From: an uncultured Candidatus Saccharibacteria bacterium
Lineage (GTDB): Bacteria; Patescibacteriota; Saccharimonadia; Saccharimonadales; CAZDQS01
Direction of reading: 5' to 3'
DNA length: 41,295 nt
NCBI GenBank assembly: GCA_964507855.1
Contig: CAZDQS010000004.1
Location: 80,888-122,182 of the forward strand
Shown here: piece after piece, positions 7,110 through 14,050 of the stretch
How positions within the stretch are numbered: position 1 is the first letter of the stretch
How the letters are laid out: each line of letters starts with the position of its first letter
The notes under the pieces: generated by a model
Told to the model about the DNA's origin: nothing
Seen by the model: the letters and a program-made list of their open reading frames with translations, nothing else
The model's database searches: none
Program-made: the position numbers and the translations under genes

Positions 7110-8192
7110 TTAGGCTAAGGTATGTTCCAGGTATGCCGCGACAAACTCCTCCAAACTACCATCGAGAATCGCATCCGGATCGGATGACTCGTGGCGGGTA
7201 CGCAAGTCTTTGACCTGCTTGTAGGGATGGAGGACGTAGGAGCGGATTTGATTGCCCCATTCGGCCGACTGATTCGGGCCTTTGAGCTCGCTGATTTTCT
7301 CCAGGTGCTGCTCCATCTGCAGCTGCAGCAGCCGCGAGCGCAAGATCGTCATGGCGGTTTCTTTATTCTGCAACTGGCTGCGCTCATTTTGGATAGCAAC
7401 GGTAATGCCAGTCGGGACGTGCGTGACGCGCACAGCCGAGTCGGTCGTATTCACCGATTGGCCGCCATGGCCGCCGCTGCGGTAGACATCGATTTTCAAA
7501 TCTTTCTCGTCAATCTCCAGATCTTCCGGCTTGTCGATTTTGGGCAATATCTCGACCTTAGCAAAGCTCGTCTGACGCAAATTATCGGAATTGAACGGGC
7601 TTAAGCGCACCAGACGGTGCACGCCGTGTTCGCCCTTCAGTTTGCCGTAGGCAAACGGCCCGCTTATCTCCAGGGTCACACTTTTAATCCCCGCCTCTTC
7701 CCCCGCTGATTCTTCGACAGTCGTTACCTTGAAATTATTCTTCTCTGCATAGCGGATGTACATCCGTAGTAGCATCTGCGCCCAATCTTGAGCGTCAGTA
7801 CCCCCCGCCCCGGCGTAAATACTGAGAATAACATCGTTATTATCATACGGGCCGCTGAACTGCAGCTCGCGTTTGAGCTCTGCGAACTGCGTCTCGGCTT
7901 GCTCGAGTTGAGCCTCCAGGTCTGTGCGGAGGCTTTCGTCATCCATGCCGGCGAGTTCCAGCACATCACTAACCTGTTTCTCAAGCGTCCGCCAGGGTTC
8001 GATGCGTGCCTGCAGTTTGGCCTGTTCTTTCATGGTATCTTGGGCTTTTTGGTTGTCCGACCAAAAGTCCGGCGCCTTTGTTGCTTCGGTGATTTCAGCC
8101 TGTCGCTTCTCTAACTGCTCCAGGTCAAGCTGAGCAATAGCCGCATCAATCGCCTGCTTCAACTCGAGCGTCTTTTTCTCAATATCTTGCAT
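7110..8192 (-). CDS. prfB: peptide chain release factor 2 (single uninterrupted ORF)
   Basis: Contains the SPF tripeptide (RLSPFNS) and the GGQ motif ([11 protein letters not shown]). Full length at 360 aa, with no internal UGA or +1 frameshift site. Confidence 0.95.
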   Translation of the reverse strand: MQDIEKKTLELKQAIDAAIAQLDLEQLEKRQAEITEATKAPDFWSDNQKAQDTMKEQAKLQARIEPWRTLEKQVSDVLELAGMDDESLRTDLEAQLEQAETQFAELKRELQFSGPYDNNDVILSIYAGAGGTDAQDWAQMLLRMYIRYAEKNNFKVTTVEESAGEEAGIKSVTLEISGPFAYGKLKGEHGVHRLVRLSPFNSDNLRQTSFAKVEILPKIDKPEDLEIDEKDLKIDVYRSGGHGGQSVNTTDSAVRVTHVPTGITVAIQNERSQLQNKETAMTILRSRLLQLQMEQHLEKISELKGPNQSAEWGNQIRSYVLHPYKQVKDLRTRHESSDPDAILDGSLEEFVAAYLEHTLA

Positions 8193-9598: not shown

Positions 9599-12208
<2,610 letters not shown>

Positions 12209-12351
12209 AAGGTCGCTTCTGTCTCCTCCTCGACTCGATATTCTGAGAATACATTGTACCGTATACGAGCGCTCCGTGCGACCGTGAAATATGAATTAAT
12301 AACTCATTTTAAGCTCAACCCTTCGGTCTGTCCGTTCCGGCCAGCCCCGAG

Positions 12352-12586
12352 CTACTTTTTGTATGGACAAAAGTAGCCAAAAAACCATCGGGCGGTTGTA
12401 ACGGCCTCGATGTATCTATTGTACAAAACAGGCTTGCTGCGGAACTCATGAAAAACTTGCCACTGGCAATTTTTCCACTCAAACAGTCCTCGCACCCAAG
12501 GGCGCCTCTTTTGTACAACATCTACTCGGGCCCGTTACAAATGCCCGGACCCAGACCAGCCGTGGATGCCCTTGCGGGCAGATTTT
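12352..12586 (+). ncRNA. candidate structured RNA, copy L (family not recognised; strand tentative)
   Basis: It aligns end to end with the reverse complement of 13409-13641. Five blocks of 10-16 nt are identical, and four hairpins keep their position but change sequence in a compensatory way. In this orientation it ends in TGCCC-ttgc-GGGCA followed by gaTTTT. The 68-aa ORF on the opposite strand is not conserved in the paralog. Confidence 0.5.
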
Positions 12587-12604
12587 GAATTACAGGGGTA
12601 GATA

Positions 12605-12633
12605 TTGACTATTTAGTGATTTTATGATACAAT
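12605..12633 (+). promoter_or_regulatory. sigma70-type promoter TTGACT-17nt-TACAAT (TGa extended -10)
   Basis: TTGACT at 12605-12610, a 17-nt spacer, and TACAAT at 12628-12633 preceded by TGa. It points at the small ORF starting at 12807. Confidence 0.6.
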
Positions 12634-12639
12634 GAGAAG

Positions 12640-12806
12640 ATAGGGTCGGTTGAGTTTTGATGAGATTCCTGTCTCCTCCCTGCCCTTGTATTTTGACAAG
12701 CAGACAGACACAAGGTGAGTTCTGATGGCGCTCTCAAGCAGCGCCCTTGTATCTCACCTTGTACAAGGATGAGAGACTGACTATACACAAACCAGGAGGA
12801 AAGACC
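12640..12806 (+). promoter_or_regulatory. long structured 5' leader (candidate riboswitch/attenuator) of the small membrane-protein gene
   Basis: Two adjacent nested stem-loops: 12669-12707 (CTGTCT/AGACAG enclosing CTTGT/ACAAG) and 12710-12762 (ACAAGGTGAG/CTCACCTTGT enclosing GGCGCT/AGCGCC). A direct repeat GCCCTTGTAT occurs at 12682 and 12743. SD AGGAGG at 12794-12799. Confidence 0.4.
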
Positions 12807-13217
12807 ATGGGGCTTGTATTCATGAGCTATGTTGTTTTGATCATCGTGGGAGTGGTAGCCGCACTCATGCCCATTCTTGCGATTGTCATAGTTGCAAGAA
12901 GTATTGTGAGAGTGATGGAGAGTGGGCGGAGCCAATTGGTGGCCGTCGCAATCATCGCTGCCCTGATCGTCGGCTACGGACAACTCGTGTACTCGTACCT
13001 GTTTAGTACGCACCACACCACCTTTGTGCGTGAGGAAGGTATTTCGCCCTACCTGCTGGAGTATAAAGTAATCGAGACGAACAAGGGCGATTTCAGGCTG
13101 GACCGCGACACACCCTCCCCCCGAGCAGGAGTCACGTATCGAGGCAGTTACCGGCGCGGCTTTTCATGGCTGGCCATGCCCCCCAAGCTTGTCTCGTTCG
13201 AGGAACGGCATCCATAA
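12807..13217 (+). CDS. small membrane protein (136 aa, two N-terminal TM helices plus a soluble C-terminal region)
   Basis: ATG at 12807 lies 7 nt after a perfect AGGAGG. The sequence begins MGLVFMSYVVLIIVGVVAALMPILAIVIVARS...LVAVAIIAALIVGYGQLVY. It is one of only four plus-strand genes in the window. I recognise no family. Confidence 0.6.
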   Translation: MGLVFMSYVVLIIVGVVAALMPILAIVIVARSIVRVMESGRSQLVAVAIIAALIVGYGQLVYSYLFSTHHTTFVREEGISPYLLEYKVIETNKGDFRLDRDTPSPRAGVTYRGSYRRGFSWLAMPPKLVSFEERHP

Positions 13218-13408
13218 GCCTTACAAACCCTCGGAACGTAGAGCCCCTTCCCAGGCGGGTCTGGCCAGCAAGCAGCGGTAAAGATATACCAAAGCCGCGC
13301 CTGCTCCTTGGCTCTTCTTTGTGTATCCTTATCCCTGTCTGCTTGTCATCTCCGCTTTCATGAATGTGTGTTCATGCTGACGAGCTGAAAACAGCGAAAA
13401 GCAATTAT

Positions 13409-13641
13409 AAAAATTGTGCTGAAGCACTCCACGGCTGGTTTCCCAGGTTCTGAAAATTCCTGACTAGATGTTGTGAGAAAGAGGCGCCCTTGGGCGTGAG
13501 GACTGTTCGAGCCAAAATAGTGCCGGCGGCACTGTTTTGGTGAGTTCCGCAGCGAGCCTCTTTATGACAACAGATAGGTCAAGATATTTTCAGTTGCCTG
13601 CGGCGTTTTTGCCTACTTTTGCTGCTGCTGGCAAAAGTAGG
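13409..13641 (-). ncRNA. candidate structured RNA, copy R (paralog of 12352-12586, inverted; strand tentative)
   Basis: It is the mirror copy of element L and begins 38 nt after the hpf stop. Hairpin CCTACTTTTGC/GCAAAAGTAGG (13612-13641). Hairpin CCAAAAcAGTGCC-gcc-GGCACTaTTTTGG (reverse complement of 13512-13540). Short terminal hairpin GTGC-ttca-GCAC followed by aaTTTTT. Confidence 0.5.
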
Positions 13642-13678
13642 TCAGGACTAGCGCTGAAAGCGATAGGCTGGAAATAGA

Positions 13679-14050
13679 CTAAGCAGCTGGGGCGCGACGG
13701 CGCTTGAGGCGATTGAGCAAACGCTTGCGCAGGCGCAAGTGGCTGTGCGCTTCCTTGTACTTCTTCAGCTGATTCTTGAGCTTCGACTCGACGATATCAA
13801 TCGCGGCAAACATATTGATGGTCGTTTCCTCGACAATGATATCTTCGCCTGGTACGTGCATCCGCACCGTACACGTGCACTGCTTCTTACCCTTGCCGCT
13901 TGACTCCTTGAGCCGCACCTCGACATACAGGCCGTCGCGGGCTTTGCGGGGCAAGTAGCGATCGAGCTTGCCAATCTTCTTGTGCACGTACTTTTTCAGA
14001 TCTTCTGTCAGTTCAAATTGTATGGCGTCGATATCTATTTTTTGTATCAT
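13679..14050 (-). CDS. hpf: ribosome hibernation promoting factor / RaiA family protein (short form with basic tail)
   Basis: 123 aa. The fold signature of the sigma-54 modulation/S30EA family is present (IQKIDIDAIQFELTEDLKKYVHKKIGKLDRYL...). SD AGGAGAAGG upstream. Confidence 0.9.
   Translation of the reverse strand: MIQKIDIDAIQFELTEDLKKYVHKKIGKLDRYLPRKARDGLYVEVRLKESSGKGKKQCTCTVRMHVPGEDIIVEETTINMFAAIDIVESKLKNQLKKYKEAHSHLRLRKRLLNRLKRRRAPAA

Follow-up and report, generated by a model that had tools for sequence, protein, structure and literature searches.

The closest described counterparts of the element reported here are, on one side, small non-coding repeats such as ERIC, REP (with BIME and REPIN) and Correia/NEMIS, together with other MITEs (miniature inverted-repeat transposable elements) and, on the other, large structured RNAs such as the raiA motif RNA, OLE, ROOL, GOLLD, HEARO and 6S RNA. 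MITEs have conserved terminal inverted repeats, target-site duplications and variable interiors. Here we describe a structured non-coding element that occurs twice, as an inverted pair, in a 41,295-nt stretch of DNA (hereafter, the window) from an uncultured Candidatus Saccharibacteria bacterium (GenBank assembly GCA_964507855.1, contig CAZDQS010000004.1, positions 80,888 to 122,182). The two copies, L on the plus strand and R on the minus strand, lie between secA and hpf and enclose an orphan gene, ORF136 (Table 1). Members of the family measure about 230–290 nt and have a covarying fold, as the large RNAs do, and they lie at unrelated sites and in inverted pairs, as the small repeats do. The element is best read as an insertable module rather than a gene-specific regulator.

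Two homologous copies in inverted orientation

The original prediction, made from the letters of the window, held that L and R form a mirror-image pair with five identical blocks between them. Both statements stand. A repeat search of the window recovers inverted arms at 12368-12530 / 13459-13621 (163 nt, 74% complementary) and a further exact inverted 12-mer (12555-12566 / 13428-13439), and MAFFT alignment of 12300-12620(+) with 13380-13700(-) gives a mean column identity of 78% over ~235 nt. All five blocks were found where they had been placed, and the two longest, CCCAAGGGCGCCTCTT and GCTGCGGAACTCA, each occur exactly twice within the window. A profile of the family (nhmmer) matches L and R with E values of 1e-61 and 1e-67, and a covariance model (CM) scores them at 169.5 and 160.4 bits. 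Homology between the two reaches ~35 nt past the P1 hairpin on either side. These data confirm that L and R are homologous, intact but diverged members of one non-coding element family. Their rods (the long central hairpins) are only 65% identical, and both L and R have closer relatives in other genomes than in one another, so the pair is not a recent in situ duplication.

A conserved fold with covarying stems

Each element consists of a small leader hairpin, the P1 hairpin, an A-rich linker, an irregular rod of ~160 nt and a variable tail. P1 has 9–13 bp, with a 5′ strand that is always pyrimidine-rich, and was found in 26 of 28 copies. The linker, 47% A over 28 copies, takes the form CAAAA(A)C or CAAAGAAAC and contains AAAA in 17 of the 28. 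The rod is one long irregular hairpin, closed by an outer helix and, in L, by stems 12400-12433/12504-12536. Its apical third is a near-invariant asymmetric core, made up of helix P4 (UGCuGcGGAaCU / AGUCCuCGCA), the junction CUCAAAC and the bulge CCCAAGGRC; P4 bears a variable apical hairpin, P3.

Structure statistics were computed on a CM alignment of 30 full-length copies (29 distinct), with the CM built from an 8-sequence seed and the sequences then re-aligned to it; these copies score 113–174 bits. Standard pairs fill 91.5% of cells, as compared to 38–42% when the partners are slid by 1–3 columns. Changes on both sides are seen at 36 of the 55 pairs (271 cells), and the covariation score is 0.431, versus ~0.06 for the slid controls, a value reached by none of 500 shuffles. 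Double substitutions occur in 12/12 pairs of P3 and 4/4 pairs of the outer helix. Within P4, one base pair is U-A in 15 copies and C-G in 14, and the adjoining pair is G-C in 27 and A-U in 2. When the 30 sequences were instead aligned with MAFFT and folded with RNAalifold, only the inner helices emerged, because the variable stems were misaligned. Folding energies of swapped halves, which need no alignment, give the same picture: cognate halves pair more stably than non-cognate ones for the outer stem (−22.6 versus −13.3 kcal/mol) and for P3 (−12.8 versus −4.9 kcal/mol), as do cognate versus chimeric halves of P1 (−13.1 versus −7.4 kcal/mol), which also covaries.

The proposal that structure has been kept by compensatory change in the stems is thus borne out, both by covariation in the CM alignment and by the half-swap energies. 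Two of the four hairpins originally drawn, P1 and P3, hold across the family. The third, a local CGGGC..GCCCG hairpin, is not conserved (33% of cells paired, no covariation); in its place there is a long-range outer helix joining 12389-12393 with 12543-12547. The fourth, a small hairpin followed by a T-run, lies outside the conserved unit and is non-homologous between L and R. Nor are the conserved blocks between the hairpins single-stranded, for they pair with each other as P4. The bulge CCCAAGGRC could alternatively pair with GUCCU (12486-12490 in L). This second hairpin is compatible with 100% of the data, but the variation consists only of U·G (20) and U-A (9), with zero double substitutions.

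A family absent from Rfam

Homologs were sought by exact core-pattern scans of one genome per GTDB species and of JGI metagenomes, with matches filtered by nhmmer and the CM. Besides the 30 full-length copies, the scans gave several that are truncated by contig ends and several second copies, ~35 homologs in all. Every one comes from a Saccharibacteria/Patescibacteria metagenome-assembled genome (MAG) or an unbinned metagenome contig. The distribution is patchy, with exact-core matches from ~13 MAGs and, by the same scans, 1–3 copies per MAG. Core-pattern matches in Bifidobacterium, Streptomyces, Burkholderiales and others had no profile or CM match and were set aside as chance. No match to the element was found in viral contigs, phage genomes or plasmids, or by blastn against 5,426 E. 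coli genomes.

The element does not belong to a family in Rfam 15. At gathering thresholds there was no match anywhere in the window, models for raiA, 6S, SRP, tmRNA, RNase P and riboswitches included; at E ≤ 10, the region 12150-13750 gave chance-level matches only (SAM-II-like, some miRNA and snoRNA models); and the element was likewise unmatched at 16 other loci. The same scans did detect a tmRNA, tRNAs and an L10 leader near element copies. A search with ARAGORN found no tRNA or tmRNA in the window, and nothing relevant emerged from full-text literature searches on either the core strings or Saccharibacteria RNAs that are structured or repeated. The two claims that this is an undescribed structured non-coding family, and that its fold is not that of tmRNA, RNase P, SRP, 6S or a riboswitch, therefore agree with Rfam 15 and the searchable literature, whereas the raiA motif RNA, which had been put forward as a possible identity, finds no match even at E ≤ 10 or at the 16 other loci. 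A likeness of ACAGUCCU to the sTRSV substrate led us to consider a hairpin ribozyme; this was dismissed, as there is no Rfam match and no AGAA-type opposing loop.

Several observations from these scans concern single loci. The L10 leader (RF00557, 54 bits) is at 7825-7992 of locus L028, in MAG ASO77, so standard cis-regulatory RNAs are recognisable in these genomes. In the window, the start of secA, with its start codon and ribosome-binding site, gives a weak SAM-II-like match (12183-12237, minus strand, 20.4 bits against a gathering score of 44, E = 0.66) that is most likely due to chance. At L050 (279-605), a copy is split by an insertion of ~50–65 nt in the rod, giving two nhmmer pieces and a CM match of 235 nt versus the usual ~168. 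Copies L003 and L011 have an extra 3′ domain, CCACGCCCGGACGCGAATAGCAAC...CGGGCG(T/G)GG, with a long-range stem, ~40–110 nt past the rod, and related blocks (CCCGCCCGGACG) occur in L001, L021 and L045; judging from these sequences, some subfamilies may extend further 3′.

Insertion at the hpf–secA junction

Eighty hpf loci of Saccharibacteria were compared. In ~65 of the 78 informative relatives, secA comes next after hpf, on the same strand and ~110–240 nt away. In the window, this distance is 1470 nt. Homology between L and R begins directly past the hpf stop codon and ends ~110 nt before secA, limits that identify ~1.36 kb (12318-13678) as an insertion made up of R, the orphan gene and L. 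A CM search of the 80 loci (718 kb) found no copy between hpf and secA in other genomes; the sole CM locus was a pair at L126, 2.2 kb from hpf. Since the spacer lacks the element in relatives and other copies lie beside unrelated genes, the hpf/secA setting is accidental. The resemblance to the raiA gene context, noted in the original prediction, consequently does not extend beyond the window (0/80 hpf loci with the element between hpf and secA).

The description of this region as coding-poor was half right. There is indeed a gap, but it holds a credible orphan gene, ORF136, with a strong promoter. No Pfam family matches ORF136, and 5.8 billion proteins include no homolog from beyond its own genome; it was accordingly rejected as a transposase or partner of the element. 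The R–ORF136–L arrangement is identical in four independent assemblies, which leaves no sign of inversion or presence/absence of the block among them.

Other repeats are found in and around the inserted block. An inner inverted repeat (12694-12715 / 13327-13348; 22 nt, 86% complementary, TGACAAGCAGACAGACACAAGG / CCTTATCCCTGTCTGCTTGTCA) lies within the L–R pair and brackets ORF136; the 5′ and 3′ untranslated regions of the orphan mRNA could pair through it, or it could mark an older insertion boundary. Between the ORF136 promoter and Shine-Dalgarno sequence is a hairpin with 23-nt arms (12710-12762), the inner part of which (12727-12745) is terminator-like, and which may be an attenuator. A direct repeat (12219-12249 / 12669-12699; 31 nt, 71% identical, with the exact 11-mer CTGTCTCCTCC, GGAGGAGACAG on the minus strand) copies the ribosome-binding region of secA into the insertion, perhaps as a relic of the former junction, perhaps by chance. 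Finally, the hpf–secA spacer is enlarged (557–2832 nt) without the element in ~13 of the 78 other Saccharibacteria (loci L060, L069, L076, L088, L090, L093, L104-L106, L116, L126, L127, L131 and L132). In general, inserted DNA seems to have a hot spot at this junction.

Contexts of other copies

Copies elsewhere are next to genes for dnaJ, L25, RRF, khpA/B, a class I aminoacyl-tRNA synthetase, RNase J, an S41 peptidase and LssY_C, and also a glycosyltransferase, hsdM, a GDSL lipase and a PEMT-like protein; the functions are unrelated. Either orientation occurs, at the 3′ ends of genes and in spacers between convergent genes. Convergent spacers are over-represented, accounting for 10 of the 24 sites that could be classified, with 11 more between co-directional genes and 3 divergent. 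Copies between co-directional genes are split, ~7 in one orientation and 4 in its reverse. Among 26 downstream neighbours, again of unrelated function, 12 share the strand of the element and 14 lie on the opposite one. A reading of the element as co-directional with its neighbours, which would have pointed to the transcribed strand, was rejected, as this is automatic in convergent spacers and the informative sites are split ~7:4.

Two 92-kb contigs from one sample (L038 and L042) delimit the unit. They have only 226 nt in common, at 99.6% identity, with unrelated flanks, and the shared segment runs from 1–2 nt before P1 to ~45 nt past the rod. The unit thus extends from P1 to a non-complementary tail, with its inverted arms internal, forming the rod. 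No target-site duplication was found at these boundaries or around the window pair. MAG ASO77 has three copies. L023 and L028 are 92.8% identical over 290 nt, and the remaining copy, which is degenerate, makes up with an extra ORF (open reading frame) ~1.3 kb inserted between a ctpA-like gene and pyrG, a spacer of 113 nt in the window. Wherever the rods of two copies are 80–99.6% identical, their surroundings are non-syntenic. Two behaviours of mobile repeats are therefore observed: near-identity of copies that lie at unrelated sites, and presence or absence of a copy at conserved junctions. The original prediction had contrasted selection on a folded molecule with decaying transposon ends: selection on the fold stands, but the contrast was too strong, as the family itself behaves like a mobile repeat.

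Second copies are arranged tail-to-tail in 6/6 pairs detected by the CM (the window, L009, L032, L045, L010 and L126), and nhmmer suggests three additional pairs. Gaps are 43–89 nt, and 890 nt in the window. In all pairs, P1 faces outward and the tails inward. Each partner is itself a complete element of a ‘type B’ form: it has a P1 and a very stable rod (−52 to −88 kcal/mol), retains UGCGGAACUC and CAAACAGUCCUCG, has a short P3 and lacks the CCCAAGGGCGCC block. Main and partner copies are ~50% identical. L and R of the window are both intact and of type A.

Comparison of flanks revealed no recurrent protein family, transposase, RAYT or recombinase within ~4 kb of any copy. tmRNA and tRNA genes are found 0.3–0.8 kb from some copies, namely at L038 6642-7202 (tmRNA, 750 nt from the element), L005 3007-3080 and 4100-4171, and L009 3798-3871. 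This vicinity may reflect a classic integration-site neighbourhood, or coincidence in compact genomes.

Strand, promoter and coding potential

Three features favour the aligned strand (L plus, R minus) as the RNA: a U·G pair (CUUGA/UCAGG) in 25 of 29 copies, alternating with C-G; the U·G/U-A alternation in the core; and non-homologous terminator-like hairpins with U-tracts past the tail, in 9/25 copies versus 5/25 in reverse. Two favour the opposite strand. Sporadic A·C/C·A cells outnumber G·U by ~48:11 overall and by 13:3 where stacked between Watson–Crick pairs, and the folding energy is lower in 28/29 copies (mean z of −7.0 versus −6.3). In this regard, folding energy alone was at first uninformative, owing to the G/U-rich composition of the opposite strand. 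The original suggestion that L and R are transcribed convergently is not established, the evidence on strand being contradictory.

No promoter was found inside the 226-nt unit, and none is conserved adjoining it, on either strand. The element must therefore be transcribed by neighbouring genes. A C-rich tail comes after the rod on the aligned strand. Between ORF136 and R, there is no other terminator on the plus strand.

The element is not coding and has no conserved ORF. L does contain a minus-strand ORF of 68 codons (12315-12521, ‘...GALGCEDC...SSAASL...’), with similar peptides in some copies, so we considered whether the family encodes a small protein. However, R has a stop codon at the position of L's start codon, the spacer between the invariant blocks (34–42 nt) falls in all three classes modulo 3, and the longest stop-free frame varies among copies on both strands, with stem substitutions that are compensatory. 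These data refute a coding role.

Features of the window

Table 1. Coordinates of the element copies and neighbouring features (positions in the 41,295-nt window)
Feature	Position	Strand	Remarks
secA	9599-12208	-	host gene downstream of insertion
native hpf–secA spacer (probable)	12209-12317		
inserted block: R, orphan gene cassette, L	12318-13678	.	junction comparison, extent of L/R homology
L element	12352-12586	+	homologous to R
L leader / P0 region	12318-12351	+	begins CTGTCCGTTCCGGCC; weakly homologous to leaders of R and L032 partner copy; carries small hairpin
L P1 hairpin	12352-12376	+	CTACTTTT / AAAAGTAG; half-swap folding energies
L A-rich linker	12377-12388	+	CCAAAAAACCAT; on opposite strand, U-tract 3-6 nt past rod
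L rod	12389-12547	+	CM match 169.5 bits, pair statistics
L rod outer helix	12389-12393 / 12543-12547	+	CGGGC/GCCCG
L rod stems	12400-12433 / 12504-12536	+	conserved internal loop GTATCTATTG / CAACATCTAC
L near-invariant core	12435-12494	+	P4 enclosing P3 and junction
L helix P4	12435-12446 with 12485-12494	+	covarying pairs
L apical hairpin P3	12449-12477	+	12/12 pairs doubly changed
L junction CTCAAAC	12478-12484	+	inside core
L invariant 9-nt 3′ bulge	12495-12503	+	CCCAAGGGC; marks type A copies, absent in type B partners
L tail	12548-12586	+	block ACCAGCCGTGGA common to R, then weak terminator-like hairpin and T-run 12567-12586
promoter, sigma-70-like	12605-12633	+	TTGACT-17-TACAAT, TG extension; 10/12 matches; predicted to serve orphan gene
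ORF136 (orphan gene)	12807-13217	+	AGGAGG Shine-Dalgarno; two predicted N-terminal membrane helices
R element	13409-13641	-	homologous to L
R tail	13409-13443	-	TCCACGGCTGGT on +; weak terminator-like hairpin with T-run at 13409-13427
R rod	13444-13600	-	CM match 160.4 bits
R rod parts	outer helix 13597-13600/13444-13447; P4 13543-13554/13495-13504; P3 13512-13540; bulge 13486-13494	-	
R A-rich linker	13601-13611	-	
R P1 hairpin	13612-13641	-	
R leader / P0 region	13642-13678	-	starts immediately past hpf stop codon
hpf (Ribosomal_S30AE)	13679-14050	-	host gene upstream of insertion

Nature and possible role of the element

We give about an even chance to the view that the family is a new structured repeat, low in copy number, discrete and insertable in the manner of ERIC, REPIN/BIME or Correia elements, transcribed together with its neighbours and under long-term selection for its fold. 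Under such a scheme, spread or copying of the element would depend on recognition of its folded invariant core by a trans-acting factor; most simply, the core would be the recognition site of a mobilising enzyme or of a host RNA- or DNA-binding protein. The fold would act on read-through transcripts, in stabilisation or processing of mRNA 3′ ends. On the opposite strand, the rod and U-tract could plausibly serve, as a by-function, as an orientation-dependent terminator or insulator. In the window, R would then end the orphan transcript, while L would stop read-through from hpf ahead of secA.

A number of observations weigh against this interpretation. There are 1–3 copies per genome, unlike in classical REP, ERIC and MITE families. 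No target-site duplication is seen, the unit lacks terminal inverted repeats, and no transposase, RAYT or recombinase gene lies within ~4 kb. The core, 13 nt plus 30 nt, is almost invariant across genomes whose proteins are 55–70% identical, and more distant copies persist at the same locus in the syntenic pairs L021/L043 and L002/L034 and partly in L009/L045; invariance and persistence of this sort are closer to what a functional RNA selected by the host would show than to selfish DNA. Evidence on the strand is divided, in that wobble counts and z-scores conflict with the conserved U·G sites. Lastly, the U-tract of the opposite strand begins 3–6 nt past the rod and is often interrupted, which is poor geometry for an intrinsic terminator.

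The most serious competitor, though one that we regard as unlikely, is a family of stand-alone genes for a trans-acting non-coding RNA (ncRNA), be it a 6S- or Y-style sequestering or scaffold RNA or a ribozyme, in which the core is the active or binding site and both duplicates and relics reflect ordinary paralog turnover. Strong covariation around an invariant asymmetric core, persistence at some orthologous loci, the large size (~230 nt) without a match to a known family, the terminator-like hairpins past many copies and the position after highly expressed housekeeping genes (hpf, dnaJ, L25, RRF, khpA, aminoacyl-tRNA synthetase, RNase J) are all as expected of such genes. Yet the 226-nt unit has no promoter and none conserved beside it, copies lie in both orientations between co-directional genes, the distribution is patchy (one locus in 718 kb from 80 genomes, an exact core in ~13 MAGs), there are degenerate copies and tail-to-tail partners without part of the core, and no 6S, SRP or Y-type match was found. 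An ncRNA gene thus fits core conservation and locus persistence better than does an insertable repeat, and fits the missing promoter, mixed orientation, relics and pairs worse. More tentatively, and with rather little probability, the two may be combined: the family may be a new class of large structured RNA with an activity of its own, a ribozyme centre or ribonucleoprotein docking site at the P4/bulge core, that propagates as a 226–290-nt unit. If so, it would be an RNA-centred mobile or semi-autonomous element peculiar to Saccharibacteria, of the candidate phyla radiation (CPR), possibly tied to their reduced machinery for RNA processing and termination.

The other explanations all appear improbable. 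That the element is mainly a terminator or insulator, a stable hairpin with a U-tract on one strand whose core is incidental or a site for a termination factor, would account for the conserved A-rich linker (a U-tract past the rod on the opposite strand), the preference for convergent spacers and gene 3′ ends, the bidirectional-terminator geometry of tail-to-tail pairs, whose partner rods remain stable despite partial core loss, and the want of another plus-strand terminator between ORF136 and R. But the U-tract is set off from the stem base and often broken, a 160-nt rod with an invariant 30-nt core and a covarying P1 is unnecessary for termination, and 7 copies lie between co-directional genes in the non-terminating orientation. 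It is no easier to credit L and R as long terminal inverted repeats of a foldback or composite DNA transposon with ORF136 as cargo, tight pairs then being cargo-less MITEs and single copies solo ends. Insertion of the block at a conserved junction, the uniform polarity of pairs and an orphan cargo gene with its own promoter are in keeping with this idea, which is contradicted by arms only 65–78% identical and each nearer to copies in other genomes, by the lack of target-site duplication at pair or singles, by an ORF136 without transposase-like domain or homologs, by single copies at most loci, by conservation that peaks at the arm centre rather than the tips and stems that covary, and by the same arrangement in all four assemblies. 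Even less probable is a folded single-stranded DNA site for recombination or replication, such as attC, an IS200/IS605-type end or a single-strand origin. Structure equally conserved on both strands, contradictory strand evidence for RNA, sharp boundaries without target duplication and variable accessory genes beside several copies could all be taken in its favour; against it, no integrase, HUH or Y1 enzyme is nearby, pairs are inverted, unlike direct cassette arrays, the 5′ edge of the unit shows no conserved target oligonucleotide (AAGT versus TATT), and plasmids, phages and viral contigs yield no matches. The idea of a raiA motif RNA, riboswitch or other cis-regulatory leader associated with hpf, secA or a downstream gene is effectively refuted: the element adjoins hpf and secA in one genome and both window copies are followed by a hairpin and T-run, but there is no raiA or riboswitch match at E ≤ 10, the hpf–secA spacer of 80 relatives is devoid of the element, downstream genes are unrelated and on the opposite strand in 14/26 cases, and ORF136 is served by a promoter that lies downstream of L.

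Neither Rfam 15 nor the searchable literature contains the family, which comes from a lineage for which hardly any non-coding elements have been described. Structured intergenic repeats and ncRNA motifs as such are already known. Well-supported structured non-coding families of >200 nt with unassigned roles are rare, and none from Saccharibacteria is described in Rfam 15 or the searchable literature. With unusually strong covariation, seen as 36 doubly substituted pairs in 30 sequences, and a striking invariant core, the element makes a solid experimental target. Should it prove a mobile structured repeat, it would have no documented precedent among the ultra-small CPR genomes, which are poor in repeats, and would mark insertion hot spots, such as the hpf–secA junction, that acquire orphan genes; as a functional RNA, it would represent a new class in organisms whose regulatory repertoire is almost unexplored. 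In either case, the CM lets annotators avoid spurious small ORF calls across element regions.

Comparison with described repeats and RNAs

The element differs from integron attC sites in that its pairs are inverted, most loci are single-copy and the flanks contain no integrase. Like Correia/NEMIS and other MITEs, it is small, non-autonomous and co-transcribed, with long hairpins, and such elements can carry promoter or terminator activity. In contrast to MITEs, its termini are not mutual inverted repeats, no duplication was seen, conservation is greatest at the centre and the stems covary.

In exceeding 200 nt, with strong covariation, conserved core nucleotides and restriction to one lineage, the element is akin to the raiA motif RNA, OLE, ROOL, GOLLD, HEARO and 6S RNA, and it shares with 6S a rod shape. 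Unlike these RNAs, it has no CM match, no fixed gene context and no detected promoter, and it occurs in both orientations, as relics and as inverted pairs. It appears to lack the large two-sided central bubble of 6S; its unpaired core consists of a one-sided 9-nt bulge and an asymmetric 7-nt loop, with P4, which contains two covarying pairs, between them.

The element and ERIC are both non-coding imperfect palindromes that fold as rods; both occupy transcribed intergenic regions and 3′ ends in either orientation, with presence/absence at orthologous sites; and in both the fold is kept by compensatory change and no enzyme is encoded. There is, however, no sequence similarity (blastn, 5,426 E. 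coli genomes), and the element is about twice as long, occurs in 1–3 copies rather than tens to hundreds, is confined to Saccharibacteria, and has an asymmetric, near-invariant 30-nt core, an extra 5′ hairpin and an A-rich linker. Compared to REP/BIME, its units are ~10 times longer and very low in copy number, no RAYT/Y1 transposase gene is near, and pair members are diverged (~50% identity for main versus partner copies, 65% for L versus R). As with REP/BIME/REPIN, however, the element forms inverted tail-to-tail pairs, has two subtypes (A and B, recalling Y and Z REPs) and occurs also as singlets and degenerate copies, all extragenic, and effects on termination and mRNA stability are to be expected of it.

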